From Flectonema sp. DT1601 (taxonomy: Eukaryota), in the NCBI GenBank assembly GCA_964019425.1, contig OZ025787.1, forward strand, positions 372,001-436,000: a DNA stretch of 64,000 nt, read 5' to 3'. The translations under genes were made by a program, and so were the position numbers. Position 1 is the first letter of the stretch. Each line of letters opens with the position of its first letter. Below the pieces are notes generated by a model that saw nothing but the letters and a program-made list of their open reading frames with translations, was not told the origin of the DNA and ran no database searches. Below, piece after piece: positions 23,878 through 55,718 of the stretch.

Positions 23878-24372
23878 TCAACAACTTTTGTGCACTCCAT
23901 TCATCAAGTTGAACTCCGTACTGTTGCCGTACAAAATGAGCGCAAAGAGATCGAAGTTCGCGCCTCCAACGATTCTGCTAATGTTAACAGTGAGTGTGTT
24001 TGTCTGGTTGATGCTTCCACTTTGTTTCAATTCACCTGTTAGATCAACACAAAATACAGGCTCCTCACTGAATGAATCAATACCTGAGGTTTCATAAGCG
24101 TTTCTCATAGGTTCTACATACGCATCATTGATCGATAGGAACGCGAAGTACGGTTTCGTCCATTCATTGCGAGTAAAGTCCATCACATAATCCTTCAAAT
24201 CAACACTCAAACGTGTGATCCCAACATTACCATACCGGAATGGCTCTACCGCATCATTAGCTCTCGTCGGTTGTACAAACAGAAACATTCGTGCGGTCGA
24301 TGCATTTGTGGCAATCGGTGATGTTCGTAGATGCCCCGTTGTGTTCTGATCTTCTAATCTCACAATCCTCAT
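23878..24372 (-). pseudogene. C-terminal fragment of a Polinton/adintovirus-like double-jelly-roll major capsid protein
   Basis: Motif order RMFLFVQ..R.N...F.Y.N..I..L.V.L / MDF..NEW..PY..F / PVFCVDLT / L.V.I / LFALILY....EFN follows the Polinton MCP C-terminal pattern as recalled (RYxxxxFQ..FDHCNL..DF..NxY..PLFVIDCS..AYCLILHD..EYNP). Confidence 0.6.
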
Positions 24373-24724
24373 GTGTTACTTACATTGCCTGTTTGCTTTG
24401 TTTGTATTGGAGGAGACCTGCTAAAGGACCTGGCCACGGCCCTGTCAATCATTTTTACCTTCTGTTGTTAGTCATAACTAGTTAGTCACCATTATCACTC
24501 CAAATGGGTGGTGAATTTTTGCCACGGCCCTGTCAATCATTTGTTCCTTCTGTTGTTAGTCATAACAAACAGAAGCGAGAGAGAAGATGTGTTTGGCTAA
24601 CATTCATAAAATCTTACTGTGGGACTTCTCTTGTTGTTGTTAATTTCCCATCCGCCTGAGGGAATCCATAAACCGCGGTCTTTACACTGTTGCCAGTGTG
24701 TTTATGGCCTTCGTCGCTGTTGAA

Positions 24725-24821
24725 AGTCCCCTCACCGCTCTATGGCATCAACATGCCATAGAGCGGCAAGTGATTAATGGACCATAGCTGAGCCTTGGGA
24801 ACTCAGATTGGGGTTTAGACT
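24725..24821 (-). ncRNA. Twister-like self-cleaving ribozyme (type P1 with P5 insert), copy 1
   Basis: Minus strand: AGUC-UAA-ACC-CC-AAU-CUGAG-UUCCCAAGG-CUCAG-[linker plus 12-bp perfect hairpin]-GGU-GAGGG-GACU. Gives P1 AGUC/GACU, P2 ACC/GGU, P4 CUGAG/CUCAG, pseudoknots CCC/GGG and CC/GG. Confidence 0.7.
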
Positions 24822-27301: not shown

Positions 27302-27655
27302 TGATTTCGAAAAGGTGGGAAGTAACGGACTGGGAGCTTTTGGCTCCTGCCCTATTCCCGATGTAAACTTTCTTTTTGTTTTATTTTTTTAACAGGCCCA
27401 AAGGGCGACAATGACAGATGCTGACCAAGGAATAATAATCAAATGCATTTTCGTTTCAAAGAAACGAACAGAATTAAGAGAGGCAGAAAAAAAAAATAAT
27501 ATGAAGAGGAAATAATCAAACATGAAAATAAATAAATAAATAAATAACGTTATATGAAAAAGAAAAAAAAAAAAAAAGAAAAAAAGAAAAAAAAAGACCA
27601 GAAAAGGAAAGAGAAGATGAAAAGGTATTTAATTAATATTTTTGTGGGGATATGG
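27302..27655 (-). mobile_element. Family B element, fixed-end fragment
   Basis: gtgggaagtaacggactgggagcttttggctcctgccctattcccgatgtaaac, the same terminus as at 37823, 43393, 56265, 60391 and 62792. Confidence 0.8.
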
Positions 27656-27658
27656 GGT

Positions 27659-28478
27659 ATCCCTGCCAGAGGGGCGAGTATTCTACCATGGTTGAAATAC
27701 TCTGGCAACTGATCTTCAATTTTATGTTGTTTGTTAGCTGCTGGTGTATCTTGATCATGTGTTGATACTTGCATTTATTTATTTGTAATCTTTCACTACA
27801 ATCACTCTTGCCTATATCTTTTCTTTTTATTCTCTATCTGTTCTGGTCTGTTACCTCATTTGTCTTGTTTAACTTCAGTTATATCCATTTTACTTTTTAT
27901 TGTTTCCCATCTACTTTTTATTTTCTATTAGTTCTGGTCAGAAACTCCTGGGCAGCAAGAAGGAAAGCAGTTGAGTACTTCTGGGTGTTTGGCATCACCC
28001 CCCATAGTGAGCAAGTACAACAGGTAGCATTGGTAGTCTGTTGATCCTGAGTGATCCCAGCTACAGTTTTGTTTTTCTTTCTTTTTTTTAGAAGAAGATC
28101 AGGACATCCTAGCACTGCTGGATAGTTGCTGAATGCAGGGCCTGCCTGTGGCATTATAATAACAGGCTAAGTCATTTGTAGTTCATAGTTTACCTTTGAT
28201 TTTATAACTTCACATAGGTACTATGAACGATGAGAGATCCAGTGGGATCACTCAGGGTCTAGTAGAGACCACCAATGTTGTGCGTTGATAGGCAAGGTGA
28301 TCAACCTTGACATTCTTTCTTTTCTCTCCTGTTGTGACAAACACAAAATACACGCACAGCTTACAGTGTGTTCTTTGTGTATGTTTTCTTCAGGTGTGAG
28401 TAGTTTTTTTGTTCTTGCTCTTCAGGGAGGGCCTTAGCCAAAAGCTAACAGTCCAAATCTCACCTGGAAATTCAACTC
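27659..28478 (+). mobile_element. Family A element, truncated copy ending ...cacctggaaattcaactc
   Basis: Matches the 1356-bp unit at 48291-52358 and has the same fixed terminus. Confidence 0.85.
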
Positions 28479-28670
28479 TAATTAACCAGTTGGATTCCTC
28501 TTGTTCGTAACAGTTCCAAGTTGACACTTCATTGTAGACACGACATGCGGCCTGACACAGAAGGCTTCCGAGCCCACGAGAGGTCCCGAGAGACCCTTCG
28601 CAGACCCTTCAACCTAAACCCATGAAAGAGCCACACCGTTATCTACATGTGTCCTCGGAGCCAATCCTTT

Positions 28671-28716
<46 letters not shown>

Positions 28717-29669
28717 TTCTGTCGGCCAGAGGCTTTTAGCCTAGGAGACCTATTGCGGTTAACGGTACGGCCTGATGCAAGAGAAGAGATCTCCCCTGTC
28801 TTTTCCATGCACATCCACCAGACACCCTACTGCACAAAAGAGTGCAGCTTTCCAGGGTAATTGTCCCTGTCCCCGCTTGATGCATTTCAAGGGACAATCA
28901 TTCCTTCAAAAAGAGACGACTACGTCATCCGGGGCCGGTGGACATGGTCGACAGGATCGTCACTGTGTTGCCACTTCAGTTCTCTGCATTCAGGTTGCGG
29001 AATGTTCACGCATTCCCTTTCGGCAAACCCGCACAGAAACACAAGTGCTCCCATGACGGCTTTGAGGCGAGCAATTACACCTTGCCTTAGGACCGACTGA
29101 CCCGTGTCCAACTGCTGTTGACACGGAAACCTTCTCCACTTCGGCCTTCAATGTTCTCCATTGAATATTCGCTACTACAACCAAGATCTGCACTCATCCA
29201 CGCTCCAGAAAGGCTCACGCCAATTCCTTCGCAGCATGGATCACGCACTCCTACTCAAGGCCGGCTTTTGAATACCGGACCTCGGCCGACTATGGGTGGA
29301 TCGCTTGAGCATCATCCATTTTCGGGACCGGTTCATTCGGCAGGTGAGTTGTTACACACTCATTATCGGATGCCGACTTCCATGGCCACCGTCCTGCTGT
29401 CTAGATGAACCGATACCCTTTGTGGGATCTGATGAGCGACCACTCGGACACCTTAAGTCAGCTCTCGGTTCATCCCGCGTCGCCAGTCCTGCTTACCAGA
29501 AGTGGCCCACTTGGAACCAGGATTCTTCGTCGGGGTTCAATTGAGCAACCCCGCGTTCACGCCCATTTAAAGTTTGAGAATAGGTCGAGGAAACGATATC
29601 CCCAACGCCTCCAATCATTCGCTTTACCTGGCGTAACTCCTTTTATGGTTCCAGCTATCCTGAGGGAAA
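28479..29669 (-). rRNA. Orphan fragment (~1.19 kb) of cytosolic LSU (28S-type) rRNA; pseudogene
   Basis: Reverse complements of universal LSU motifs: cccgaagttacggatc, ttgccgacttcccttacctacatt, tactacaaccaagatctgcac, catttaaagtttgagaatagg, gctatcctgagggaaa. Truncated by repeats at both ends. Confidence 0.93.
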
Positions 29670-30513
29670 ATAGAAAGTAATCGACATAGTCGATCGATAA
29701 AAAAACAATGATAACATTGTTTATTCTTTTTTTTTTTTTTTTTTTTAAATTCTTTTTATTTATTTTTTAAGAAAAAAAAACGGAAAATAGAAATTAGTCG
29801 ACATGGTCGAACGATAAAAAAACAATGATAACATTGTTTATTCTTTTTTTTATTTTTTTTTTTTTATATTCTTTTTTATTAATTTTGAAAAAAAAAAAAA
29901 AACAATCAGTTTAGCGTCTTGACCAGGACGGAAAATAGAAAGTAATCGACATAGTCGATCGATAAAAATACAATGATAACATTGTTTAATCTTTTATAAT
30001 TTTTTATTTTTTTTTTGTTTTAAAAAAAAAAAAAAAAAACAAGCGGAATTGATCATAATGGGTGGTAGGGGTTGTTATAACTTCGTTTGAAAATTCTTCT
30101 TTTTTGATTTCTTTTTTTTTTTTTTCTTTTTACAGGAGTTAAGATCACTTTCAGGAGACAACACATACACATTAACAAGAGCAGCAAGCAGAGTTGACAC
30201 TATCAATTCAAATTTGAAATACCGGGAATTAATTTACAAGGAGGTATCTCAAGTGACTTGGTATCTCTAGCGTGTCGGTATCTCTGGAGTGCTGGTATCT
30301 CGTATGTGCGTTGGTATCTCATGAGTGATGGTATCTCTTGTGCATTAGAGAAACGAAAAAGAATGTCATGACCATGACGGAAGAATTGAGGAATTGAGTT
30401 AACATGTTCAATTTAACTTATTTAAACTTTTTTTTTTTTTAACAGACCGTAACTATTTGAAAATAAAATGTAGATGGGAAACAGTGAAAAGTAAAATGGA
30501 TGATAAAATTAAA

Positions 30514-30766
30514 GGAAAATTCTCCGTTGCTACCCCAAAACTTTATTTTTCTCCGTTGTAGTCCACCTAAAAGAATTTTTCTCCGTTGTGTTTTTTTTTC
30601 TTTTTTTTTTTCGCTGTTGTGTGCCACCTAAACTTTTTTTTCGCTGTTGTGTGCCACCTATATTTATTTTTCGCTGTTGTGTGCCACCTATATTTATTTT
30701 TCGCTGTTGTGTGCCACCTATATTTATTTTTCTCTGTTGTGTGTCACTTGACCTTTTTTCCCTTTT

Positions 30767-30830
<64 letters not shown>

Positions 30831-33800
30831 CCTTTTTTTTTTTTTTTTTTTTTTGTGCACCTGTCTACCTGGTTAGTTAGTTAGATACCATACACTCATC
30901 TGATGGATTGATTGAAAGCTAATAACACAAACGGTTAAGGATGTGATGACTTGGGAAATGATAAAAGTAATCTTCCTTCTGGAACTTCTGCTCAGTACAC
31001 GCAAATGCATCTTGACACGCGGGAACCCTTCGGGCAGTACTGCGCTCTTGATAATTTAAGGTAGCCTTAAAAAAGCTCTCATGCTTGCATGAGTTAGATA
31101 CCCTGATAACCCGGTCAGAAACAGGAGTGTCGCTTGCGACCAGGCTGTCTGTAACTCGCAGGTGTCTTGGCCTTGAAATTCGGTTGGAATGACGTGTAAG
31201 AGGACAACAGTTCTCTGTAAGGTGACCCAGCCCTGCACACATACCGTTCTTTGCATGCACTTGTAGTAAAACTCCCAGAGGCTGAGAACACTATCAAGAC
31301 CTGACGAACAACCCAACCTTTCCGTGAGTACTTGTCTTTGCTAATCTCGTCAAGCCAGATGAACATCGTACAAACGTTATCTCAACATCCGTGTGCGCTT
31401 AAGGTGAGAGGGTGTTCATGGAAACTTTGTGGCTGAAAATAAATTTTGGTAGTGGTTTTAGGGATTCTCATTTTTTTCTTGCTGTTCTGGACCTAGGTCC
31501 CCTTGATAGTTTGTTTGTTTTTTTACTCTACGTTTCCAGATAATAACTACTCAACACCTACCTACCTACCTACCTGCTACCAAATGCCTGGAAACATGGA
31601 CTCCCCGCAGACTGCACCTGTGATCGCATCTGAGGATACTGTTACACCTGTCCCGACCATAAACGTGCCGGTGTTCAATGTTCCGACACCAACCCTGGGA
31701 CGTGTCTTCCCTAGCGAGAGTGCACTCCTGGCAAGCGTCACCCTCGCCTGCTGCTCCACTGGAAGGAGGTTTAGCAGACAAAAGCGTGAGAACCGGATAT
31801 CGTTCCATTGCACATCCGACTCATGTGAGTGGAGGGTGTGCGCTACAGGGAGTTGTGAAGAGAGAACTGTGACGGTGTCACAGCTGCGGCATACGGACGC
31901 TTGCAACCCTGGGGAGGGGAGGGTGTACGGGCTCAAGACCACAATAGCCTACCTTTCCCTGGCAAAATACAAGGAGTTGGGTACAAAATATAAAAAGTCC
32001 CACCTTGTACAAGACTTAAAGTCTTGCGGCATAACAGTAGGGAAGGATACTGTATACCGGGCCCTCGGAGAGGCCGATAAAGAGATCAATGGTGACCCCC
32101 ATGAGGGATTTGCCTGGTTACAGGCCTGGTTCACCTCACTGGCGGAACAAAACCCCGGTACCCAGTGGGACATAAAAGAAGAGGGTGGAAGGTTTAAGTC
32201 CTTTTTCCTTGCTTTGGGGGCATCGCTGGAGGGTGTAGGTGCATGTCCGGGGGGATTTGGGGTTGTTGATGGGTGCTTCTTACGAGCACATTACTTGGGG
32301 ACATTGCTTACATTTGTTGCAATGGACCCACTGGGAAGTCAATTCCCTGTGGGTTTCGCCTTGATAGGCAATGAAGACGCCGAAGGGTGGAAGTACTTCC
32401 TTGGGAAGCTGGAGTCGGCGGTGAAGGTTCCGGAGTTTTTGGGCGAAGGGTTTGGCCTTATGGCCGATCAGGACAAGGGCCTACTGTCGGTGCTTCGTGG
32501 GGATTACAACGATGTGATTGCCCTCAAATGCACACAACACATGGGTCGAAACATCAAGGCCAAGTTCAGCAAGGAGATGTTTGGTAGGTTCAAACATCTG
32601 TGTACGGCACCTTCATACAGGTTCCTACCCATGTTTGATGCTCTTGGTGAGTCTGCGGAGGAGAACGAGCTTGAAGTACTCCACGAATACCTGGATGAAA
32701 AGGAGCCTGAGACTTGGGCTCGCGGTGCAATCCGCTCTAGGACGTACAATCAAAGTACGAACAACCTGGCTGAAGGGTTTAACAATGTTATCTCTTCAGC
32801 CAGGGACAAGAATGTGTTGGGGATGCTTAACAGCATTGTCAGCATTGTGCAGAAGTGGCACTACGAGCGACGGCGTAGTGCGCACGATGCAGAGGGTGAT
32901 GACGAGATGGTTTTGGGGTGGGTGCGAGAGATCGTGGAGACGGCTGCCGTTGAAGCAGCAGTGTTCACTGTTGAACCAGTGATGCACGAAGGCGAAGTGT
33001 TTGAAGGTATGGTATCTTTCTCGGGGCTTGTAGAATCATCTGCAGGGATAATAACAACAAACAGCGAACGTTGTACATGGACAGAGGCAGGAGTTGGTCA
33101 AGCTGGTGGGTAAAGAAATGGCTTGCACCTGTTTGCTCCCAGAGCAGACTGCCTTGCCATGCGTTCATACCTGCGCGGCTATCAGGTACTTCTTCTTTTT
33201 GTCTTTTTGTTGTCGTGGTCAACGCTACTTGTGGCGAATTAATTGGACTAAATAAACAGGTTTCTTGGTTTCAACGAGATGCAGTACGTTCCAACCTGCT
33301 TTCGTTTGGGAGCCTTACGAAAGGCGTATGACGACCCAGTACGGCCAGTTGGGCTGTATCAGTTTCAGTCGGCGAAGACTGAACTGTTACCGCCAACAAC
33401 GAAGAAGCCGAAGGGTGCCCCCACGAAGAGGATTCCTTCCAAAGGGGAGGGAAAGAACTTGTGTAGTCGTTGTGGTAAGGTGGGCCACAATAAGACTACG
33501 TGTAAAAACCCCTTACACGAGAAGTCGGCCCCGAAGAAGTCAGCCCCTAAGAAATCGGCCCCCAAGAAGTCGGCCCCCAAGAAGTCGGCCCCCAAGAAAT
33601 CAGCGAAGAAGTCGGCCCCCAAGAAGACTGTCGATACATCGATTAGGAGAAACCGGATATCCGGAAAGAGAAAGAAGTGTGATTCAAGTTCATCATCTGA
33701 TGAGCTTTAATATTTTTCGATGCAAGGTCATCATCTGATTCATTTATAGTGTTTTCTATTCTTGCTTTATAAAACTTTTCGTCTAACAAGGAAACACTGT

Positions 33801-34059
33801 CAAGAATGTGAGAAGATGTGAAGATTCTACCTCTGATTTTTTTTCTTATTTCTTTTTTCTTTTTTTTTTTTTTTTTCGAGAAAAAAAAATTTTTTTTTAG
33901 AGAAAAAAAAAAAGTGCTGGTACCCAACAGAGAAAAAAAAAAAAGAGTTGTTCACAACAGCGAAAAAACTTTTTGGGTGCAGGCAACGGAGAAAAAAAAG
34001 TTAAGGTGACAGGCAACGGAGAAAAAACTTTTTTTTATGTAGGCAACGGAGAATTCTCC
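30514..34059 (+). mobile_element. Mutator-like (MULE) DNA transposon, probably autonomous
   Basis: Termini ggaaaattctccgttgc...gcaacggagaattctcc, subterminal repeats, 9-bp TSD aaaattaaa (30505-30513 and 34060-34068). Uninterrupted homologous site near 47337-47354. Confidence 0.95.
31584..33710 (+). CDS. MULE transposase, predicted exons 31584-33006, 33065-33185, 33260-33710 (664 aa)
   Basis: DDE residues in VVDGCFL, LMADQDKGL and TNNLAEGFNN; CxxH (KCTQH). Removing GT-AG introns 33007-33064 and 33186-33259 restores a SWIM finger (CTCLLPEQTALPCVH), YVPTCF..AY and a CCHC knuckle (CSRCGKVGHNKTTC) in one frame. Confidence 0.88.
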
Positions 34060-34872
34060 AAAATTAAATGAGAAATATGACATAACAGACCAGATAGAGA
34101 GTATTAAAGGGAAATTGAAAAGGAAAAGAGAAACTAGGTTAACACTTATTTAAAATTAAGACCGGTTAGTCAGTTTAAGGTCTTGACTAGGACCAACAAA
34201 AAAGAAAGAAAAAAAATTAACGATCAAGCTGAGCTGATCCTGTTTTTATTACAAATAGGGGAGCGGGAGGGATGGAAGGAATAGAGGAAAAAAAAAGAAA
34301 AGGTTGATCAATTGGATCTGATCGTCGAGAAGAAGAAATTATTTTAAAGGTTGATCGGTATAGCCGATCGTTGAGAAAAATAAACAGATATAAATACAAT
34401 CAGTTTAAATTAAAAAAAGAAAGAAAGATTAACGATCAAGCTGAGCTGATCTTGTTTTTATTTAAAATTAGGGGAGCGGGAGGGATGGAAGGAATAAAGG
34501 AAAAAAAAAAAAAAAGGTCGATCAATTGGATCTGATCGTCGAGAAGAAGAAAACAATTATTTATAAAAAAAAGAAAAAAATGGTCGGTATAGCCGATCGT
34601 TGAGAAAAGAACAGATATAAATACAATCGGTTTTGGTGATCGACGAGTGGAGCGATCACTTGACAAGAAGGAAAAAGAAAGGACCGATTAATTGGGGCTT
34701 TGATTGTATTCCCAAGGCATGTTTTTTTTTTTTTTTTTTATTATTCATTTACATTATTATTATTTTTTTTTTTTTTTAAATTAATAATCACATTTTGTTC
34801 AAAAATATTTCATATTAGAGTAAAAGAAAAAGAAAAAAAGAAATAAGAGAAAAAAAAAAAAAAAACCATTGC

Positions 34873-34966
34873 TGGCCCCCTCACCACTCATAGAGGATGA
34901 GGAGGCCAGTAAGGCGTCACTCAAATCTATGCCAAGCCTTGGGAACTTGGATTGGGGTTTAGACCA
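34873..34966 (-). ncRNA. Twister-like self-cleaving ribozyme, copy 2
   Basis: Minus strand: UGGUC-UAA-ACC-CC-AAU-CCAAG-UUCCCAAGG-CUUGG-[linker, CUCAU/AUGAG stem]-GGU-GAGGG-GGCCA. Core identical to copy 1, with compensatory changes in P1 and P4. Confidence 0.7.
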
Positions 34967-34989: not shown

Positions 34990-37420
34990 GAGTTGAATTA
35001 CCAGGTGAGATTTGGACAGTTAGCTTTTGGCTAAGGCCCTCCCTGAAGAGCAAGAACAGAAAAACTACTCACACCTGAAGAAAACATACACAAAGAACAC
35101 ACTGTAAGCTGTGTGTGTATTTTGTGTTTGTCACAACAGGAGAGAAAAGAAAGAATGTCAAGGTTGGTCACCTTGCCTATCAACGCACAACATTGGTGGT
35201 CTCTACTAGACCCTGAGTGATCCCACTGGATCTCTCATCGTTCATAGTACCCTGTGTGAAGTTATAAAATCAAAGGTAAACTATGAACTACAAATGACTT
35301 AGCCTGTTATTATAATGCCACAGGCAGGCCCTGCATTCAGCAACTATCCAGCAGTGCTTGGATGTCCTGATCTTCTTCTAAAAAAAAGAAAGAAAAACAA
35401 AACTGTAGCTGGGATCACTCAGGATCAACAGACTACCAATGCTACCTGTTGTACTTGCTCACTATGGGGGGTGATGCCAAACACCCAGAAGTACTAAACT
35501 GCTTTCCTTCTTGCTGCCCAGGAGTTTCTGACCAGAACTAATAGAAAATAAAAAGTAGATGGGAAACAATAAAAAGTAAAATGGATATAACTGAAGTTAA
35601 ACAAGACAAATGAAGTAACAGACCAGAACAGAAAGAGAATTGTAATAGAAGATTACAAATAAAAAAATGCAAGATCAACACATGATCAAGATACACCAGC
35701 AGCTAACAAACAACATAAAATTGAAGATCAGTTGCCAGAGTATTTCAACCATGGTAGAATACTCGCCCCTCTGGCAGGGATTATCCCAGACTTGTCCTTT
35801 AATCTAGTTGGACACCATGGCTTACAACCCTTCCAGAGGGAAGCACCATTATGACTTCTATTTTTTTTTCTTCAAGAAAATCATAAGGTGGTAACAAAGA
35901 AAAATGCTAAGAGGAACCCCTTATTAACACCTAAGACATCTAAACTGCAGCCCAGCTTATGCCCAATGCACTAACAGGTCATTCCCTCACACTCAGATCA
36001 AAAAATCAAAGTTCAGAGTGCATCTTAGCATGAATGAGAGAAATTCCTCATCGCTTTTTTTGAACAAAAGGGATAGAAGAGGGGATAGAAAACGAACATA
36101 ACAATAAAATTCTAAGTGAGAAACACTTAGCAGAAACACTTAGCAGCTTTTAAGGACCTGATTAACGTTATGATCTGACGGACATAAACATATCGATAAA
36201 ATAATACAAACAAGGAGTTGAATTTCCAGGTGAGATTTGGACTGTTAGCTTTTGGCTAAGGCCCTCCCTGAAGAGCAAGAACAAAAAAACTACTCACACC
36301 TGAAGAAAACATACACAAAGAACACACTGTAAGCTGTGTGTGTATTTTGTGTTTGTCACAACAGGAGAGAAAAGAAAGAATGTCAAGGTTGGTCACCTTG
36401 CCTATCAACGCACAACATTGGTGGTCTCTACTAGACCCTGAGTGATCCCACTGGATCTCTCATCGTTCATAGTACCTATGTGAAGTTATAAAATCAAAGG
36501 TAAACTATGAACTACAAATGACTTAGCCTGTTATTATAATGCCACAGGCAGGCCCTGCATTCAGCAACTATCCAGCAGTGCTTGGATGTCCTGATCTTCT
36601 TCTAAAAAAAAGAAAGAAAAACAAAACTGTAGCTGGGATCACTCAGGATCAACAGACTACCAATGCTACCTGTTGTACTTGCTCACTATGGGGGGTGATG
36701 CCAAACACCCAGAAGTACTCAACTACTTTCCTTCTTGCTGCCCAGGAGTTTCTGACCAGAACTAATAGAAAATAAAAAGTAGATGGGAAACAATAAAAAG
36801 TAAAATGGATATAACTGAAGTTATACAAGACAAATGAAGTAACAGACCAGAACAGAAAGAGGATTGTAATAGAAGATTACAAATAAAAAAATGCAAGTAT
36901 CAACACATAATCAAGATACACCAGCAGCTAACAAACAACATAAAATTGAAGATCAGTTGCCAGAGTATTTCAACCATGGTAGAATACTCGCCCCTCTGGC
37001 AGGGATTATCCCAGACTTGTCCTTTATTCTAGTTGGACACCATGGCTTACAACCCTTCCAGAGGGAAGCACCATTATGACTTCTATTTTTTTTCTTCAAG
37101 AAAATCATAAGGTGGGAACAAAGAAAAATGCTAAGAGGAACCCCCTATTAACACCTAAGACATCTAAACTGCAGCCCAGCCTATGCCCAATGCACTAACA
37201 GGTCATTCCCTCACACTCAGATCAAAAAATCAAAGTTCAGAGTGCATCTTAGCGTGAATGAGAGAATTTCCTCCCGCTTATTTTGAACAAAAGGGATAGG
37301 AGAAGGGATAGAAAACGAACATAAAAATAAAATTCTAAGTGAGAAACACTTAGCAGAAACACTTAGCAGCTTTTAAGGAGCTGAAAAGCAAAAAAAAAAT
37401 CTAAGTGAGAAACACTTAGT
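34990..37420 (-). mobile_element. Two family A copies in tandem (34990-~36160 and 36215-~37420)
   Basis: On the + strand both begin gagttgaatt(a/t)ccaggtgagatttggac, the reverse complement of the 1356-bp unit end. Confidence 0.85.
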
Positions 37421-38344
37421 GAGGAACGAACAATAAATAATAAATAAGCTAAAAAACTAAATAAACAAAGTGATGTGAAAGTAAGGAAAAAGAGAATTAC
37501 AAGGGGGTGGAGTCACCGTGAACGTCATCAGCAGAACATCTCCTTCGATTGTAACGATATCTTGATGGAGGGGTTCGTTTTTTCAGAGTTGAACGCTCAG
37601 ACTTTCTCGGATTTGAATGATTCAATTTATATGTTCACTTCTAATTATATTTTTCTACTTACAGCACACCAATAAAATATAACTGCACTAAATAAATTTT
37701 CCTAGTTTATTGTATTTTCACACCTTTTCTTTCACAAGGGGGAAAAAAAAATGGCTGGGCAAAATGTTTGTTAGCAGGGAAATATTCTCGCGGGGAAATA
37801 TTCTCGCGGATTTAGGAAAAATGAATTTCGATAAAGTGGGAAGTAACGGACTGGGAGCTTTTGGCTCCTGCCCTATTCCCGATGTAAACTTTCTTTTTAT
37901 TTTTATTTTTTTTTAACAGGCCCAAAGGGCGACAATGATGGTTGCTGACCAAGGAATAATATTCAAATGAATTTTCGTTTCAAAGAAACGAACAGAATTA
38001 AGAGAGAGGCAGAGGAAAAAAAAAAAAAAAGAAAGAAAAGAAAAGAAAAAAAAAAATGAAGAGGAAATAATCAAACATGAAAAAAAAAAAAAAAAAAACA
38101 ATCAGTTTAGCGTCTTGACCAGGACGGAAAACTGGAAGTAATCGACATAGTCGATCGATAAAAAAAACAATGATAACATTGTTTCATCTTTTATATTTTT
38201 TAATTTTTTTTTATATTTGAAGAAAAGAAAGAAGAAAAAAAAAAAAAAAAAAAAAACAAGCGGAATTGATCATAATGGGTGGCAGGGGTTGATATAACTT
38301 CATTTGAAAATTCTTCTTTTTTAATTTCTTTTTTTTTAAAAAAT

Positions 38345-41300
38345 TAATAAAAAGAATATAAAAAAAAAAAAAAGAATAAACAATGTTATCATTGTTTTTT
38401 TTTATCGTTCGACTTTGTCGACTAATTTCTATTTTCCGTTTCTTTTCTTTAAATAATAAATAAAAAGAATTTAAAATAAAAAAAAAGAATAAACAATGTT
38501 ATCATTGTTTTTTTATCGATCGACTATGTCGATTACTTTCTATTTTCCGTCCTGGTCAAGACGCTAAACTGATTGTTTTTTTTTTCAAAATTAATAAAAA
38601 AGAATATAAAAAAAAAAAAAAAAAAAAAGAATAAACAATGTTATCATTGTTTTTTTTTTTATTGTTCGACTTTGTTGACTAATTTCTATTTTCCGTTTTT
38701 TTTTCTTTAAAAAATAAATAAAAAGAATTTAAAATAAAAAAAAAGAATAAACAATGTTATCATTGTTTTTTTATCGATCGACTATGTCGATCACTTTCTA
38801 TTTTCCGTCCTGGTCAAGACGCTAAACTGATTGTTTTTTTTTCAAAATTAATAAAAAAGAATATAAAAAAAAAAAAAAAAAAAGAATAAACAATGTTATC
38901 AATGTTTTTTTTTTATCGTTCGACTTTGTCGACTAATTTCTATTTTCCGTTTCTTTTCTTTAAAGAATAAATAAAAAGAATTTAAAATAAAAAAAAAGAA
39001 TAAACAATGTTATCATTGTTTTTTTATCGATCGACTATGTCGATCACTTTCTATTTTCCGTCCTGGTCAAGACGCTAAACTGATTGTTTTTTTTTTTTTC
39101 AAAATTAATAAAAAAGAATATAAAAAAAAAAAAAAAAAAAGGAAAAACAATGTTATCATTGTTTTTTTTTATCGTTCGACTTTGTCGACTAATTTCTATT
39201 TTCCGTTTCTTTTCTTTAAAGAATAAATAAAAAGAATTTAAAATAAAAAAAAAGAATAAACAATGTTATCATTGTTTTTTTTATCGATCGACTATGTCGA
39301 TCACTTTCTATTTTCCGTCCTGGTCAAGACGCTAAACTGATTGTTTTTTTTTTTTTCAAAATTAATAAAAAAGAATATAAAAAAATACAAAAAAAAGAAT
39401 AAACAATGTTATCATTGTTTTTTTTATCGTTCGACTTTGTCGACTAATTTCTATTTTCCGTTTTTTTTTTCTTTAAAAAATAAATAAAAAGAATTTAAAA
39501 TAAAAAAAAAGAATAAACAATGTTATCATTGTTTTTTTTATCGATCGACTATGTCGATCACTTTCTATTTTCCGTCCTGGTCAAGACGCTAAACTGATTG
39601 TTTTTTTTTTTCAAAATTAATAAAAAAGAATATTAAAAAAAATACAAAAAAAAAAGAATAAACAATGTTATCATTGTTTTTTTTTTATCGTTCAACTTTG
39701 TCGACTAATTTCTATTTTCCGTTTTTTTTTCTTTAAAAAATAAATAAAAAGAATTTAAAATAAAAAAAAAAGAATAAACAATGTTATCATTGTTTTTTTT
39801 TATCGATCGACTATGTCGATTACTTTCTATTTTCCGTCCTGGTCAAGACGCTAAACTGATTGTTTTTTTTTTTCAAAATAAAAAAAAAATATTAAAAAAA
39901 AAAAATAAAAAAAAAGAATAAACAATGTTATCATTGTTTTTTTTTATCGTTCGACTTTGTTGACTAATTTCTATTTTCCGTTTTTTTTTCTTTAAAAAAT
40001 AAATAAAAAGAATTTAAAAAAAAAAAAAAAAAAAAAGAATAAACAATGTTATCATTGTTTTTTTTATCGATCGACTATGTCGATTACTTTCTATTTTCCG
40101 TCCTGGTCAAGACGCTAAACTGATTGTTTTTTTTTCAAAATTAATAAAAAAGAATATAAAAAAAAAAAAAAAAAAAGGAAAAACAATGTTATCATTGTTT
40201 TTTTTTATCGTTCGACTTTGTCGACTAATTTCTATTTTCCGTTTCTTTTCTTTAAAGAATAAATAAAAAGAATTTAAAATAAAAAAAAAGAATAAACAAT
40301 GTTATCATTGTTTTTTTTATCGATCGACTATGTCGATCACTTTCTATTTTCCGTCCTGGTCAAGACGCTAAACTGATTGTTTTTTTTTTTTTCAAAATTA
40401 ATAAAAAAGAATATAAAAAAATACAAAAAAAAGAATAAACAATGTTATCATTGTTTTTTTTATCGTTCGACTTTGTCGACTAATTTCTATTTTCCGTTTT
40501 TTTTTTCTTTAAAAAATAAATAAAAAGAATTTAAAATAAAAAAAAAGATTAAACAATGTTATCATTGTTTTTTTTATCGATCGACTATGTCGATCACTTT
40601 CTATTTTCCGTCCTGGTCAAGACGCTAAACTGATTGTTTTTTTTTTAAAAATTAATAAAAAAGAATATTAAAAAAAATACAAAAAAAAAAAGAATAAACA
40701 ATGTTATCATTGTTTTTTTTTTATCGTTCAACTTTGTCGACTAATTTCTATTTTCCGTTTTTTTTTCTTTAAAAAATAAATAAAAAGAATTTAAAATAAA
40801 AAAAAAAGAATAAACAATGTTATCATTGTTTTTTTTTATCGATCGACTATGTCGATTACTTTCTATTTTCCGTCCTGGTCAAGACGCTAAACTGATTGTT
40901 TTTTTTTTTCAAAATAAAAAAAAAATATTAAAAAAAAAAAATAAAAAAAAAGAATAAACAATGTTATCATTGTTTTTTTTTATCGTTCGACTTTGTTGAC
41001 TAATTTCTATTTTCCGTTTTTTTTTCTTTAAAAAATAAATAAAAAGAATTTAAAATAAAAAAAAAAGAATAAACAATGTTATCATTGTTTTTTTTTATCG
41101 ATCGACTATGTCGATTACTTTCTATTTTCCGTCCTGGTCAAGACGCTAAACTGATTGTTTTTTTTTTTCAAAATAAAAAAAAAATATTAAAAAAAAAAAA
41201 AAAAAAAAAGAATAAACAATGTTATCATTGTTTTTTTTATCGATCGACTATGTCGATTACTTTCTATTTTCCGTCCTGGTCAAGACGCTAAACTGATTTT

Positions 41301-41985
41301 TTTTTTTTTCAAAATTAATAAAAAAGAATATAAAAAAATACAAAAAAAAAGAATAAACAATGTTATCATTGTTTTTTTTTATCGTTCGACTTTGTCGACT
41401 AATTTCTATTTTCCGTTTTTTTCTTTAAAAAATAAATAAAAAGAATTTAAAATAAAAAAAAAAAAGAATAAACAATGTTATCATTGTTTTTTTTATCGAT
41501 CGACTATGTCGATTACTTTCTATTTTCCGTCCTGGTCAAGACGCTAAACTGATTGTTTTTTTTTTTCAAAATAAAAAAAAAATATTAAAAAAAAAAAAAA
41601 AAAAAAAGAATAAACAATGTTATCATTGTTTTTTTTATCGATCGACTATGTCGATTACTTTCTATTTTCCGTCCTGGTCAAGACGCTAAACTGATTGTTT
41701 TTTTTTTCAAAATTAATAAAAAAGAATATAAAAAAATACAAAAAAAAGAATAAACAATGTTATCATTGTTTTTTTTATCGATCGACTATGTCGATTACTT
41801 TCTATTTTCCGTCCTGGTCAAGACGCTAAACTGATTGTTTTTTTTTTCAAAATAAAAAAAAAATATTAAAAAAAAAAAATAAAAAAAAAAGAATAAACAA
41901 TGTTATCATTGTTTTTTTTTATCGTTCGACTTTGTTGACTAATTTCTATTTTCCGTTTTTTTTTCTTTAAAAAATAAATAAAAAG

Positions 41986-42020
<35 letters not shown>

Positions 42021-42792
42021 TAAACAATGTTATCATTGTTTTTTTTATCGATCGACTATGTCGATTACTTTCTATTTTCCGTCCTGGTCAAGACGCTAAA
42101 CTGATTTTTTTTTTTTTCAAAATTAATAAAAAAGAATATAAAAAAATACAAAAAAAAAGAATAAACAATGTTATCATTGTTTTTTTTTATCGTTCGACTT
42201 TGTCGACTAATTTCTATTTTCCGTTTTTTTCTTTAAAAAATAAATAAAAAGAATTTAAAATAAAAAAAAAAAAGAATAAACAATGTTATCATTGTTTTTT
42301 TTATCGATCGACTATGTCGATTACTTTCTATTTTCCGTCCTGGTCAAGACGCTAAACTGATTGTTTTTTTTTTCAAAATTAATAAAAAAGAATATAAAAA
42401 AAATAAAAAAAAAAAGAATAAACAATGTTATCATTGTTTTTTTTTTATCGTTCGACTTTGTTGACTAATTTCTATTTTCCATTTTTTTTCTTTTTAAAAA
42501 TAAAAAAAAAAAAGAATTAAAATAAAAAAAAAAAAAAAGAATAAACAATGTTATCATTGTTTTTTTTATCGATCGACTATGTCGATTACTTTCTATTTTC
42601 CGTCCTGGTCAGGACGCTAAACTGATTGTTTTTTCTTTAAAAATAAATAAAAAGAATAAAAAAAAAAAAAAAAAGGAATAAACAATGTTATCATTGTTTT
42701 TTTTTTTATCGATCGACTATGTCGATTACTTACTATTTTCCGTCCTGGTCAAGACGCTAAACTGATTGTTTTTTCTTTAAAATAATTAAAAA

Positions 42793-42825
<33 letters not shown>

Positions 42826-42925
42826 TGAATAAACAATGTTATCATTGTTTTTTTTTTCTATCGATCAACTATGTCGATTAATTTCTATTTTCCGTCCTGA
42901 TCGAGACGCTAAACTGATTGTTTCC
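38345..42925 (+). repeat. Hairpin-rich satellite, ~110-135-bp alternating monomers (also 52700-55810; reverse orientation at 29670-29990, 43560-43855, 44950-45220, 58100-60980)
   Basis: Recurrent aacaatgttatcattgtt, atcgactatgtcgat and cgtcctggtcaagacg separated by variable A/T tracts. Confidence 0.97.
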
Positions 42926-43097
42926 TTTTTTTAAATAATAAATAAGAAAAAAAAAAAAAAAAAAAAAAAAGAGCATCTCCCTGCTATCCCTCATATCCCC
43001 ACAATAATATTATACCTTTTCATTTTCTCTTTCCTTTTCTGGTCTTTTTTTTTTTCTTTTTTTTCCTTTTTCATACAACGTTTTTTATTTATATATA

Positions 43098-43129
<32 letters not shown>

Positions 43130-43164
43130 CATGTTTGATTATTTCCTCTTCATTTTTTTTTTTC

Positions 43165-43197
<33 letters not shown>

Positions 43198-44010
43198 TTC
43201 CTCTGCCTCTCTCTTAATTCTGTTCGTTTCTTTGAAACGAAAATTCATTTGAATATTATTCCTTGGTCAGCAACCATCATTGTCGCCCTTTGGGCCTGTT
43301 AAAAAAAAATAAAAATAAAAAGAAAGTTTACATCGGGAATAGGGCAGGAGCCAAAAGCTCCCAGTCCGTTACTTCCCACTTTATCGAAATTCAAAAAACG
43401 TTGTATGAAAAAGGAAAAAAAAGAAAAAAAAAAGACCAGAAAAGGAAAGAGAAAATGAAAAGGTATAATATTATTGTGGGGATATGAGGGATAGCAGGGA
43501 GATGCTCTTTTTTTTTTTTTTTTTTTTTTTTCTTATTTATTATTTAAAAAAAGGAAACAATCAGTTTAGCGTCTCGATCAGGACGGAAAATAGAAATTAA
43601 TCGACAAAGTTGATCGATAGAAAAAAAAACAATGATAACATTGTTTATTCATTTTTTTTTTTTTTTTTTTTTTTTTAAATCTTTTTAATTATTTTAAAGA
43701 AAAAACAATCAGTTTAGCGTCTTGACCAGGACGGAAAATAGTAAGTAATCGACATAGTCGATCGATAAAAAAAAAACAATGATAACATTGTTTATTCCTT
43801 TTTTTTTTTTTTTATTCTTTTTATTTATTTTTAAAGAAAAAACAATCAGTTTAGCGCGAAAAACTCGCGGGTTTTTCCCCACAAGAATATTTCCCTTTAC
43901 AGTATGCACGAGGTAAGAGAAGTGGAATAAAATACACACAAAGTAATTTCGGTAGTTTATGTTTTCTTTATCATCGGCGCTGCTTTAGGACATGGTAGCA
44001 AATTACCTAA

Positions 44011-47040: not shown

Positions 47041-47365
47041 CCACTCACTTCGAACGCACTCAGCCAGAGAGCTTGCCAACAGAACAGAACGCAAGGTTAC
47101 TCAATTGATCGACCTTTTCTTTTTTTTTTCCTTTATTCCTCCCATCCCTCCCGCTCCCCTTATTTTAATAAAAACAAGATCAGCTCAGCTTGATCGTTAT
47201 TTTTTTTTTTTTCTTTTTGTTGGTCCTAGTCAAGACCTTAAACTGACTAATCGGTCTTAACTTTAACTAAGTAAATGAACCCTTCCCGTTTTCCTTTTCC
47301 CTTTATTACTCTCTATCTGGTCTGTTATGTCATAAATCTCATTTAATTTTATCATTCATTTTAAT

Positions 47366-50300
47366 CTCTTAGCATTTTTCTTTGTTCCCACCTTATGATT
47401 TTCTTGAAGAAAAAAAATAGAAGTCATAATGGTGCTTCCCTCTGGAAGGGTTGTAAGCCATGGTGTCCAACTAGATTAAAGGACAAGTCTGGGATAATCC
47501 CTGCCAGAGGGGCGAGTATTCTACCATGGTTGAAATACTCTGGCAACTGATCTTCAATTTTATGTTGTTTGTTAGCTGCTGGTGTATCCTGATCATGTGT
47601 TGATACTTGCATTTCTTTATTTGTAATCTTCTATTACAATTCTCTTTCTGTTCTGGTCTGTTACTTCATTTGTCTTGTTTAACTTCAGTTATATCCATTT
47701 TACTTTTTATTGTTTCCCATCTACTTTTTATTTTCTATTAGTTCTGGTCAGAAACTCATGGGCAGCAAGAAGGAAAGCAGTTTAGTACTTCTGGGTGTTT
47801 GGCATCACCCCCCATAGTGAGCAAGTACAACAGGTAGCATTGGTAGTCTGTTGATCCTGAGTGATCCCAGCTACAGTTTTGTTTTTCTTTCTTTTTTTTT
47901 AGAAGAAGATCAGGACATCCAAGCACTGCTGGATAGTTGCTGAATGCAGGGCCTGCCTGTGGCATTATAATAACAGGCTAAGTCATTTGTAGTTCATAGT
48001 TTACCTTTGATTTTATAACTTCACACAGGGTACTATGAACGATGAGAGATCCAGTGGGATCACTCAGGGTCTAGTAGAGACCACCAATGTTGTGCGTTGA
48101 TAGGCAAGGTGACCAACCTTGACATTCTTTCTTTTCTCTCCTGTTGTGACAAACACAAAATACACACACAGCTTACAGTGTGTTCTTTGTGTATGTTTTC
48201 TTCAGGTGTGAGTAGTTTTTTTGTTCTTGCTCTTCAGGGAGGGCCTTAGCCAAAAGCTAACAGTCCAAATCTCACCTGGAAATTCAACTCAGTCCTTGTC
48301 AGTTTTGGCATCAAACTTGTAATGGTTTAATCATTACAGGTTATTTACTGAAATATTTGTTCTAAAAGTTGCTAAGTATTTCTCACTTAGAAATTTTTTA
48401 TTTTTTTATTTTCAGCTTAATTAGCTACAAATTGTTTCTACTAAGTGTTTCTCACTTAGATTTTTTTTTTGCTTTTCAGCTCCTAAAAACTGCTAAGTGT
48501 TTCTGCTAAGTGTTTCTCACTTAGAATTTTATTGTTATGTTCGTTTTCTATCCCTTCTCCTATCCCTTTTGTTCAAAATAAGCGGGAGGAAATTCTCTCA
48601 TTCACGCTAAGATGCACTCTGAACTTTGATTTTTTGATCTGAGTGTGAGGGAATGACCTGTTAGTGCATTGGGCATAGGCTGGGCTGCAGTTTAGATGTC
48701 TTAGGTGTTAATAGGGGGTTCCTCTTAGCATTTTTCTTTGTTCCCACCTTATGATTTTCTTGAAGAAAAAAAATAGAAGTCATAATGGTGCTTCCCTCTG
48801 GAAGGGTTGTAAGCCATGGTGTCCAACTAGATTAAAGGACAAGTCTGGGATAATCCCTGCCAGAGGGGCGAGTATTCTACCATGGTTGAAATACTCTGGC
48901 AACTGATCTTCAATTTTATGTTGTTTGTTAGCTGCTGGTGTATCCTGATCATGTGTTGATACTTGCATTTCTTTATTTGTAATCTTCTATTACAATTCTC
49001 TTTCTGTTCTGGTCTGTTACTTCATTTGTCTTGTTTAACTTCAGTTATATCCATTTTACTTTTTATTGTTTCCCATCTACTTTTTATTTTCTATTAGTTC
49101 TGGTCAGAAACTCATGGGCAGCAAGAAGGAAAGCAGTTTAGTACTTCTGGGTGTTTGGCATCACCCCCCATAGTGAGCAAGTACAACAGGTAGCATTGGT
49201 AGTCTGTTGATCCTGAGTGATCCCAGCTACAGTTTTGTTTTTCTTTCTTTTTTTTTAGAAGAAGATCAGGACATCCAAGCACTGCTGGATAGTTGCTGAA
49301 TGCAGGGCCTGCCTGTGGCATTATAATAACAGGCTAAGTCATTTGTAGTTCATAGTTTACCTTTGATTTTATAACTTCACACAGGGTACTATGAACGATG
49401 AGAGATCCAGTGGGATCACTCAGGGTCTAGTAGAGACCACCAATGTTGTGCGTTGATAGGCAAGGTGACCAACCTTGACATTCTTTCTTTTCTCTCCTGT
49501 TGTGACAAACACAAAATACACACACAGCTTACAGTGTGTTCTTTGTGTATGTTTTCTTCAGGTGTGAGTAGTTTTTTTGTTCTTGCTCTTCAGGGAGGGC
49601 CTTAGCCAAAAGCTAACAGTCCAAATCTCACCTGGAAATTCAACTCAGTCCTTGTCAGTTTTGGCATCAAACTTGTAATGGTTTAATCATTACAGGTTAT
49701 TTACTGAAATATTTGTTCTAAAAGTTGCTAAGTATTTCTCACTTAGAAATTTTTTATTTTTTTATTTTCAGCTTAATTAGCTACAAATTGTTTCTACTAA
49801 GTGTTTCTCACTTAGATTTTTTTTTTGCTTTTCAGCTCCTAAAAACTGCTAAGTGTTTCTGCTAAGTGTTTCTCACTTAGAATTTTATTGTTATGTTCGT
49901 TTTCTATCCCTTCTCCTATCCCTTTTGTTCAAAATAAGCGGGAGGAAATTCTCTCATTCACGCTAAGATGCACTCTGAACTTTGATTTTTTGATCTGAGT
50001 GTGAGGGAATGACCTGTTAGTGCATTGGGCATAGGCTGGGCTGCAGTTTAGATGTCTTAGGTGTTAATAGGGGGTTCCTCTTAGCATTTTTCTTTGTTCC
50101 CACCTTATGATTTTCTTGAAGAAAAAAAATAGAAGTCATAATGGTGCTTCCCTCTGGAAGGGTTGTAAGCCATGGTGTCCAACTAGATTAAAGGACAAGT
50201 CTGGGATAATCCCTGCCAGAGGGGCGAGTATTCTACCATGGTTGAAATACTCTGGCAACTGATCTTCAATTTTATGTTGTTTGTTAGCTGCTGGTGTATC

Positions 50301-52358
50301 CTGATCATGTGTTGATACTTGCATTTCTTTATTTGTAATCTTCTATTACAATTCTCTTTCTGTTCTGGTCTGTTACTTCATTTGTCTTGTTTAACTTCAG
50401 TTATATCCATTTTACTTTTTATTGTTTCCCATCTACTTTTTATTTTCTATTAGTTCTGGTCAGAAACTCATGGGCAGCAAGAAGGAAAGCAGTTTAGTAC
50501 TTCTGGGTGTTTGGCATCACCCCCCATAGTGAGCAAGTACAACAGGTAGCATTGGTAGTCTGTTGATCCTGAGTGATCCCAGCTACAGTTTTGTTTTTCT
50601 TTCTTTTTTTTTAGAAGAAGATCAGGACATCCAAGCACTGCTGGATAGTTGCTGAATGCAGGGCCTGCCTGTGGCATTATAATAACAGGCTAAGTCATTT
50701 GTAGTTCATAGTTTACCTTTGATTTTATAACTTCACACAGGGTACTATGAACGATGAGAGATCCAGTGGGATCACTCAGGGTCTAGTAGAGACCACCAAT
50801 GTTGTGCGTTGATAGGCAAGGTGACCAACCTTGACATTCTTTCTTTTCTCTCCTGTTGTGACAAACACAAAATACACACACAGCTTACAGTGTGTTCTTT
50901 GTGTATGTTTTCTTCAGGTGTGAGTAGTTTTTTTGTTCTTGCTCTTCAGGGAGGGCCTTAGCCAAAAGCTAACAGTCCAAATCTCACCTGGAAATTCAAC
51001 TCAGTCCTTGTCAGTTTTGGCATCAAACTTGTAATGGTTTAATCATTACAGGTTATTTACTGAAATATTTGTTCTAAAAGTTGCTAAGTATTTCTCACTT
51101 AGAAATTTTTTATTTTTTTATTTTCAGCTTAATTAGCTACAAATTGTTTCTACTAAGTGTTTCTCACTTAGATTTTTTTTTTGCTTTTCAGCTCCTAAAA
51201 ACTGCTAAGTGTTTCTGCTAAGTGTTTCTCACTTAGAATTTTATTGTTATGTTCGTTTTCTATCCCTTCTCCTATCCCTTTTGTTCAAAATAAGCGGGAG
51301 GAAATTCTCTCATTCACGCTAAGATGCACTCTGAACTTTGATTTTTTGATCTGAGTGTGAGGGAATGACCTGTTAGTGCATTGGGCATAGGCTGGGCTGC
51401 AGTTTAGATGTCTTAGGTGTTAATAGGGGGTTCCTCTTAGCATTTTTCTTTGTTCCCACCTTATGATTTTCTTGAAGAAAAAAAATAGAAGTCATAATGG
51501 TGCTTCCCTCTGGAAGGGTTGTAAGCCATGGTGTCCAACTAGATTAAAGGACAAGTCTGGGATAATCCCTGCCAGAGGGGCGAGTATTCTACCATGGTTG
51601 AAATACTCTGGCAACTGATCTTCAATTTTATGTTGTTTGTTAGCTGCTGGTGTATCCTGATCATGTGTTGATACTTGCATTTCTTTATTTGTAATCTTCT
51701 ATTACAATTCTCTTTCTGTTCTGGTCTGTTACTTCATTTGTCTTGTTTAACTTCAGTTATATCCATTTTACTTTTTATTGTTTCCCATCTACTTTTTATT
51801 TTCTATTAGTTCTGGTCAGAAACTCATGGGCAGCAAGAAGGAAAGCAGTTTAGTACTTCTGGGTGTTTGGCATCACCCCCCATAGTGAGCAAGTACAACA
51901 GGTAGCATTGGTAGTCTGTTGATCCTGAGTGATCCCAGCTACAGTTTTGTTTTTCTTTCTTTTTTTTTAGAAGAAGATCAGGACATCCAAGCACTGCTGG
52001 ATAGTTGCTGAATGCAGGGCCTGCCTGTGGCATTATAATAACAGGCTAAGTCATTTGTAGTTCATAGTTTACCTTTGATTTTATAACTTCACACAGGGTA
52101 CTATGAACGATGAGAGATCCAGTGGGATCACTCAGGGTCTAGTAGAGACCACCAATGTTGTGCGTTGATAGGCAAGGTGACCAACCTTGACATTCTTTCT
52201 TTTCTCTCCTGTTGTGACAAACACAAAATACACACACAGCTTACAGTGTGTTCTTTGTGTATGTTTTCTTCAGGTGTGAGTAGTTTTTTTGTTCTTGCTC
52301 TTCAGGGAGGGCCTTAGCCAAAAGCTAACAGTCCAAATCTCACCTGGAAATTCAACTC
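47366..52358 (+). repeat. Family A head-to-tail array: one partial plus three full 1356-bp units
   Basis: ORF-track offsets 47424/48780/50136/51492; units end ...caactc at 48290, 49646, 51002 and 52358. Confidence 0.97.

Positions 52359-55684: not shown

Positions 55685-55718
<34 letters not shown>

Follow-up and report, generated by a model that had tools for sequence, protein, structure and literature searches.

To our knowledge, the natural roles of twister ribozymes are mostly unknown, with one worked-out case, Perere-3. This autonomous RTE non-LTR retrotransposon of Schistosoma mansoni has a type-P1 twister on its 5' side, the cut leaves a 5'-AA, and the target-site duplication beside the cut supplies the 5' strand of P1 (accessible text of PMC8501958). 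The locus described here lies in a 64,000-nt stretch of DNA (the window). It also places a type-P1 twister (twister 1) on the 5' side of a putative retroelement, with a predicted cut that would leave a 5'-AA. Unlike Perere-3, the copy with twister 1 has no ORF and no duplication, and its P1 has its own upstream strand.

Four other systems are comparable with the repeat family adjoining twister 1 (family B) and with a second family in the window (family C). MRC1 of Chlamydomonas, a non-autonomous Penelope-like element (PLE), resembles them in 5' truncation, head-to-tail multimers, an inverted truncated 5' copy, common 3' ends and the lack of a clear duplication (accessible text of PMC8557442). 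In contrast to MRC1, no autonomous partner with a reverse transcriptase (RT) is seen in the window, and a twister far from the 3' end takes the place of a pseudo-LTR hammerhead. The L1Tc and NARTc elements of trypanosomatids, with the HDV-like ribozyme L1TcRz, share a euglenozoan host, polycistronic transcription, a 5' ribozyme on a non-autonomous element and inhibition of that ribozyme by downstream sequence (PMC3185411, in part). They differ from B in ribozyme class and in that the elements begin at the cut. Animal non-LTR retrozymes are also non-coding and tandem-forming, and borrowing of PLE machinery has been proposed for them (PMC7229834; bioRxiv 10.64898/2026.07.22.740005; both in part). 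They carry a hammerhead in every 150-450 bp tandem unit, whereas here tandem C is without a ribozyme and the twister copy is single. Finally, HINE/DINE-1 Helentrons share a 3' stem-loop, central tandem repeats and the absence of a duplication (PMC4067079, in part), but B and C differ from them in lacking subterminal inverted repeats and in having modified junctions and ragged 5' ends.

A twister at the 5' end of a retroelement and 5' ribozymes on euglenozoan non-autonomous elements are thus already known. A search of titles and abstract openings among papers outside subscription, which paired 'twister' with kinetoplastid rather than diplonemid terms, gave none that places a twister in an element of Penelope-like, non-autonomous or euglenozoan kind, and nothing that links twister, Polinton and ribozyme. 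The word 'twister' is absent from the accessible text of PMC8557442, and 'ribozyme' has no occurrence in the seven supplementary files of the Diplonema papillatum genome paper (PMC10161547). The locus is likely a ribozyme-bearing non-autonomous retroelement of a new variety. If so, ribozyme-processed retroelements extend to diplonemids, which are abundant and barely studied protists, and the locus gives a small test case for asking why such elements carry ribozymes where transcription reads through.

Host and genomic setting

The host is a diplonemid, since in a cpn60 tree of 31 rows its protein groups with D. papillatum and one ENA protein (support 100/99), with Namystynia next. Readings as a kinetoplastid host and as an SL-RNA repeat were dropped. 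The genes of the window are intronless and co-oriented and comprise two L5 copies, a mitochondrial cpn60 and an ammonium-transporter-like ORF, followed by a nested repeat cluster. The two L5 genes lie in tandem at 14141-16319 (-) and are 99.9% identical over 951 bp. According to the accessible text of PMC10161547, transcription in D. papillatum is likely polycistronic, and its genome contains numerous retroelement ORFs as well as MULE and Helitron ORFs, together with dispersed 28S fragments and tandem NUMTs.

Other repeats were also observed in the window. Nested tandem repeats with periods of 5652 bp and 368 bp and short ORFs occupy 1-13750. Foldback-type inverted ends surround a 12.9-kb block inserted in satellite at 45222-58092, and another element with 59-bp inverted ends lies at 58736-59775.

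Fold and predicted regulation of twister 1

Twister 1 and its adjoining structures are as follows.

34873..34966 (-): twister 1, type-P1 twister fold with predicted U^A cut at U34961/A34960 (descriptor and pair covariation)
34896..34909 (-): decoy strand within P5, complementary to the 3' strand of the ribozyme (folding energies)
34707..34872 (-): AT-rich, single-copy fold-back (RNA folding)

Twister 1 consists of P1 (5 bp), P2 (3 bp), P4 (5 bp), an extended P5 and the pseudoknots T1 and T2, that is, the P1/P2/P4 helices with both pseudoknots that define type P1. The U^A step at L1 and the conserved G on the opposite L1 strand, whose roles are described in PMC8501958 (in part), are both present. 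The twister descriptor matched twice in the window, compared with 19 matches over 98 order-2 Markov-shuffled windows (~0.19 per window). Twister 1 was aligned with the second match (twister 2) and with a metagenome twister (L008), three related sequences chosen via their core pattern. All 17 pairs are kept in the three sequences, two-sided changes occur at seven of them, and UAA and GAGGG are invariant. The same level of covariation was attained by one of 500 shuffles. This covariation strongly supports the twister fold at the sequence level and is no proof of activity. The minus-strand twister of the initial annotation, with its cut at 34961/34960, is thus borne out as a fold by helices, descriptor and the 17 kept pairs, and its cleavage is a prediction.

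The Rfam twister models gave no match at the gathering score in the window, and the 12 matches at E<=10 likewise include none. This miss of twister 1 probably comes from its long P5 insertion; if so, Rfam overlooks twisters bearing long P5 arms. A covariance model built on the three twisters recovered only the two training copies and one antisense echo.

Twister 1 and twister 2 each have a strand in P5 that is complementary to their own 3' strand, and the sequences of these strands differ between the copies. The minimum-energy decoy hairpin of twister 1 reaches -38.8 kcal/mol, versus -26.8 kcal/mol for the nested active fold, with pseudoknots unscored. Under the same scoring, in which pseudoknots do not count, the margin of the decoy hairpin over the nested active fold is 12 kcal/mol in one twister and 22 kcal/mol in the other. 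The decoy hairpin is predicted to block the active fold and switch both twisters off. Because the predicted decoy folds outcompete the nested active fold, both twisters may not cut. The presence of modelled decoys in both suggests regulated natural twisters.

Folding also ties the ribozyme to its downstream neighbour, since twister 1 and the following 170 nt are predicted to form one folding unit. The terminal 10-mer of the fold-back (34718-34709) pairs with loop L4 of twister 1 at a pair probability of ~1, and L4 was paired as fully in four of 200 shuffles of the part downstream of twister 1. The fold-back scores no worse on the antisense strand (z -7.9) than on the sense strand (z -5.9). The L1Tc ribozyme is inhibited by the sequence downstream of it (PMC3185411, in part).

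Families B and C and their common 3' stem-loop

Family B comprises six copies with a common stem-loop end, at 27303, 37822, 43393, 56265, 60391 and 62792, and two pieces without the fixed 3' end (43394-43856 and 44603-45221). The features of the twister-bearing span and of the other copies are listed below.

34060..34633 (-): B left arm, duplicated pyrimidine/purine blocks (87% to the copy at 47102-47350)
30514..34059 (+): MULE DNA transposon of 3.5 kb, inserted in B (PF10551, E 4e-9)
30037..30513 (-): B right arm, GGTATCTC-type repeats
29666..30036 (-): hairpin satellite within B, ~3 units
28484..29665 (-): LSU rRNA fragment of 1.18 kb inside the B span (TTTCC overlap at the satellite join)
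27659..28483 (+): family C copy, 5'-truncated, inverted relative to B
27303..27658 (-): B 3' region with stem-loop (core 27352-27327)
37470..37821 (-): upstream 'leader', its start resembling a zf-BED (hAT-like) fragment
37822..38337 (-): B copy, 5'-truncated, placed like a pseudo-LTR ahead of the twister copy
38338..43393 (+): 5'-truncated B copy in inverted orientation, abutting 37822..38337 back to back
47102..56265 (+): B copy, 5'-truncated, without twister, carrying a C array
60391..60534 (-): B 3'-end copy of 144 bp, inserted in satellite with a 0-2 bp duplication
62792..63077 (-): B 3'-end copy adjoining satellite

Much of the initial description of family B agrees with these features. 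The duplicated purine blocks, GGTATCTC repeats and hairpin satellite were all found, as were the six fixed-end copies. A 145-bp copy placed at 60389 corresponds to the 144 bp at 60391-60534, and a twister-less copy said to run from 47100 starts at 47102. The reported absence of an RT also holds, as the window shows neither an RT motif nor similarity to RTs. The element had also been described as ORF-less and contiguous, but the span holds a MULE transposase, an LSU rRNA piece and an inverted C copy. The transposase ORF of the MULE (31497-33113) is near-intact, and the transposon has a 9-bp target duplication (TTTAATTTT) and 30-bp subterminal repeats. A MULE derivative at 60996-62663 has 495 bp in common with it at 96% identity.

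Without the insertions, the distance from the twister to 27303 is ~2.1 kb, and the three scanned B arms hold no Met-started frame longer than one of 39 codons. The twister copy probably reaches the stem-loop end at 27303 and hence shows both ends, so the earlier statement that no single copy does is probably wrong, as the copy continues around its insertions. The 27303 end is 89-94% identical to neighbouring ends, as against 99.6-100% between the 37822 and 43393 ends, so the long copy may be composite and its 27303 end possibly an older copy. The 3' 280 nt of the inverted 38338..43393 copy are 99.6% identical to the 37822..38337 copy. The hairpin satellite has ~35 units in 38338-42972. The LSU rRNA fragment is wedged between satellite and the 3' end of C.

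The first ~200 nt of the leader align with 43860-44036 with 118 matches and 44 mismatches, a level reached in none of 200 shuffles. A hAT-like zf-BED ORF fragment lies at 43857-44602 (+), and its start resembles the leader upstream of the twister.

Family C is present upstream of the twister and as an array.

34990..36161 (-): family C copy, 23 bp upstream of the twister (empty site in run X3)
36215..37469 (-): the second of the family C copies that precede the twister
47366..52358 (+): array of family C with 3.7 identical 1356-bp units head to tail (3' end fixed, 5' end truncated)

The C copies are 5'-truncated, from 123 to 1257 bp, and 98-100% alike, and the 3.7-mer sits inside a B copy. The copy at 27659..28483 may have inserted into the rRNA sequence. 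The first ~70 nt of the B right arm are 87-90% identical to C positions 755-815, with 61 of 68 aligned bases equal. A 418-bp repeat family (45481-47040 and 26970-27231) is the target of the 123-bp C end and adjoins the B end at 27303.

A single 3' stem-loop pattern fits 14 ends (six of B, eight of C) and occurred in none of 100 shuffles. Two of the nine consensus pairs differ in both bases between B and C, and one G-U pair recurs in seven of seven aligned ends. A scan of viral sequences with this pattern gave no loci. The sequences that follow six C ends differ, and B ends vary by only 1-2 nt, where a 30-40 bp tail was looked for. With a covarying 3' stem-loop in common and a ribozyme on one family only, B and C form a natural comparison of what an RT needs.

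Compared with 30 shuffles, the C unit has a much more stable fold (z -4.85). With RNA parameters, the sense strand is the better folding strand, with z values of -4.0, -1.3, -3.0, +0.5 and -3.2 versus -3.0, +0.5, -1.1, -0.5 and -1.0 for antisense. No ribozyme was detected in the C unit by Rfam, hammerhead, permutation-free twister-core and loose HDV scans. The twister core had no match in the B arms, and the descriptor for hammerhead types I-III had none in the window.

The tandem form of C bears on whether these are true retrozymes, in which cleavage of tandem twister units would give monomers that become circles and are reverse transcribed into multimers. C forms a 3.7-mer with a fixed 3' end and a single contig of 1366-1387 nt across the head-to-tail junction in three of four public sequencing runs examined, and the ribozyme-locking decoy folds recall circular ribozyme RNAs. 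However, tandem family C is without a ribozyme, and the ribozyme-bearing copy has one twister, not two. No tandem unit carries its own ribozyme, and no unit is bracketed by two. The units are also larger than the 150-450 bp of animal retrozymes (PMC7229834, in part). The stretch is present in 16 of 20 listed public runs (12 studies), none of them on record as RNA, so the wrap-around C contigs fit tandem DNA as well as a circle. The twister lies outside the coverage of the four runs examined. We consider the retrozyme reading very improbable, and the term 'retrozyme-like' of the initial annotation finds no support, as two-ribozyme bracketing is absent and the scans found no ribozyme in a complete C tandem unit.

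It is still less probable, and barely credible, that B and C are nuclear copies of the constant regions of diplonemid mitochondrial minicircles or of another high-copy circle. Diplonemid mtDNA is very abundant, consists of small circles with common repeats and leaves tandem NUMTs, and the C wrap-around contig appears in low-coverage runs. A unit of 1.36 kb is smaller than the reported 2-12 kb, though, and the C copies, 98-100% alike, are without a cassette-like variable part. No recognisable gene module was seen in 47 code-4 frames, inspected by eye rather than by profiles, and 14 insertions with a fixed 3' end would not be expected of NUMTs. C is unlikely to be of mitochondrial origin.

Insertion pattern, linkage of twister and family B, and twisters elsewhere

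B and C have variable 5' ends and fixed 3' ends (14 hairpin ends), no target-site duplication, and both head-to-tail (the C 3.7-mer) and inverted copies (the B pair at 38337/38338). Empty-site junctions show a 0-2 bp duplication, few lost or added bases and 5' microhomology. Such small duplications, lost or extra bases and microhomology would be expected from target-primed reverse transcription (TPRT), not from clean strand transfer. L1Tc and NARTc have poly(A) tails and duplications, and B and C have neither. The 0-2 bp duplications, the missing tail and the intact upstream P1 strand do not fit derivation from a LINE of the Perere-3 or NARTc type.

In 27303-43393, the long copy has a truncated copy upstream of it, and back to back with that one lies another truncated copy in inverted orientation; this layout is described for PLE insertions in the accessible text of PMC8557442. 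The 5' truncation with a fixed 3' end, the partial tandems and the inverted truncated 5' copy are all as in PLEs. According to the same text (PMC8557442), non-autonomous Chlamys elements make head-to-tail multimers with 3' ends in common, and Naiad/Chlamys elements are mostly without a hammerhead. A hammerhead in the pseudo-LTR, a trait of canonical-clade PLEs, was not found in the window with the descriptor. Reading 37822-38337 as a pseudo-LTR is weakened by the hAT-like leader upstream. A PLE RT was shown to nick AT-rich DNA and then initiate at an internal stem-loop, its hammerhead being dispensable for insertion in vitro (PMC11167929, in part). RT initiation at an internal stem-loop would yield fixed 3' ends from tandem transcripts.

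These patterns make it slightly better than even, in our judgement, that B and C were moved by TPRT via a Penelope-type RT. They support the earlier view of a non-autonomous element whose 3' end is structured and fixed and whose 5' ends are truncated, and among the options the tandem and inverted copies without duplication favour a Penelope-like one.

The same ends can be compared with non-autonomous Helentron-type rolling-circle elements (HINE/DINE-1-like) that spread an internal satellite, with the twister as a captured passenger. The stem-loop of B and C lies 12-15 nt from the 3' end; tandem repeats inside the elements, AT-rich targets, no target duplication, tandem copies and captured rRNA are further matches, and D. 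papillatum has Helitron-like ORFs (PMC10161547, in part). Yet the 12-15 bp subterminal inverted repeat of Helentrons is lacking; the best candidates in three end-to-end comparisons are 7-9 bp and of low complexity, the true 5' end of B being uncertain. Junctions are modified and mostly not TT-flanked, unlike HINEs, which insert without target modification (PMC4067079, in part). Ragged 5' ends, the inverted back-to-back copy and sense-biased RNA structure also argue against rolling-circle transposition, and this reading is weakened and improbable.

Under Penelope-type TPRT, a Penelope-type RT encoded elsewhere would copy family B, with the 3' stem-loop as its putative recognition and initiation signal. 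The partner of B and C would then be a Penelope-like element. If the twister belongs to B and cleaves, then near the far 5' end of B it could cut the element RNA out of a longer read-through transcript, and the cut twister would refold into an off state. As diplonemid genes are likely co-transcribed, the 5' twister would play the role of the HDV-like ribozyme in L1Tc/NARTc. Satellite units are carried and multiplied within B, and the satellite also serves as a target for B ends and DNA transposons. We put forward tentatively, and at somewhat less than even probability, that B is a non-coding repeat copied by an external Penelope-type RT, with a 5' twister that frees the RNA and then refolds off.

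Whether the twister is part of B is about even. The strand, the position and the fold that joins the twister to its downstream neighbour are in favour. On the other side, the link is seen at one locus, and the 240 nt at 34872-34634 occur only once in the window. The flanks of twister 2, which lies ahead of a capsid-like fragment, are unrelated, and the L008 twister lies between non-RT ORFs. In PLEs known to have ribozymes, these sit inside the pseudo-LTR, close to the 3' end and not at a distance of 2 kb. Twister 1 retains an intact P1 5' strand ahead of its cut site, so the DNA copy did not arise from RNA that had been cut, and the twister can cap the element only at the RNA level. The initial claim that the twister caps family B therefore holds for one locus and is qualified by the single-copy 240 nt, the unrelated flanks of twister 2 and a copy that does not begin at the cut. 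A start of full-length copies at the U^A site had been put forward as a check, and with the P1 5' strand intact upstream this copy does not begin there.

Twister 2 and the metagenome twisters are relevant to this linkage.

24725..24821 (-): twister 2, core as in twister 1, predicted cut at 24817/24816 (descriptor and covariation)
23884..24439 (-): remnant of a decayed double-jelly-roll-like capsid gene (its C-terminal half), 285 bp downstream of twister 2
L006 1000-2685 (-): permuted twister, with a decayed RT gene on one side and a 247-aa ORF on the other
L008 942-4143 (+): type-P1 twister where a narrow gap separates a PHD-finger ORF from the following ORF, ~40 nt before the ATG of the latter

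Twister 2 lies ~10 kb from twister 1, shows compensatory changes relative to it in P1 and P4, and has flanks unrelated to family B. Together with its following 380 nt it also forms a compact fold (z -6.0). The capsid-like fragment shares 59% identity with a protein of Flectonema, for which Pfam gave a DJR-like match below threshold. It has no relative in viral contigs and no PDB or Pfam match. A single-sequence model of the capsid-like protein has a pLDDT of 38, and a fold search on that model is meaningless. Twister 2 and the capsid fragment are enclosed by two ~170-bp direct repeats (82-85%) at 24821-23567 (-), a unit which we take to be 'Polinton-like'.

The twister core pattern was found at five metagenome loci, two of which have twisters (L008 of type P1, L006 permuted). 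Three viral loci matching the pattern were without twister helices and were rejected as chance matches. None of the metagenome or viral loci resembles the window. In L006, a twister with the window-type core lies ~290 nt after a decayed YVDD reverse-transcriptase gene. This RT belongs to a divergent family with 29 relatives, has no Pfam match, and a word search gave no longer relatives. One relative, P0133 (1144 aa), shares 41% identity with it over 429 aa, and has no Pfam or PDB match. We read its N-terminal segment as GIY-YIG-like and presume that P0133 resembles a PLE with an N-terminal endonuclease; on this presumption, the twister beside the L006 RT gene counts in favour of the Penelope-type reading. 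The C-terminus of P0133 is linked to HTH_animal clusters in the atlas, which is a lead only. Both ORFs around the L008 twister are non-RT, and the placement of this twister suggests processing of polycistronic RNA.

These placements are the ground for a competing reading, in which the twister stands at the head of a separate small structured RNA (~260-380 nt) and lies beside B only through nested mobile elements, with B and C as ribozyme-free Penelope-like or LINE-like non-autonomous elements. Consistent with this, twister 2 and its 380 nt fold compactly among unrelated flanks, the fold-back of twister 1 stops at ~34707, ahead of the first B-repeated block at 34633, and C is mobile without a ribozyme. 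The L006 and L008 relatives lie between ORFs of unrelated elements, and the sequence upstream of twister 1 is hAT-like. However, twister 1 shares the strand and composition of B and sits at the distal end of the longest B copy, and no junction mark (duplication or inverted end) separates the fold-back from the B blocks. We regard a separate unit as doubtful.

The Penelope-type reading can be extended to a broader picture, which we consider unlikely as a whole. Diplonemids would harbour non-coding Penelope-like parasites with one RT stem-loop, in which a switchable twister, locked by its decoy strands once transcribed, replaces the hammerhead in cutting element RNA from polycistronic transcripts and is a module swapped among unrelated elements, including capsid-bearing ones, and the satellite would be seeded and spread by these parasites.

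A perfect 64-bp palindrome was also observed at 63824-63887, and one of its arms occurs again at 63070-63100, beside a B 5' junction.
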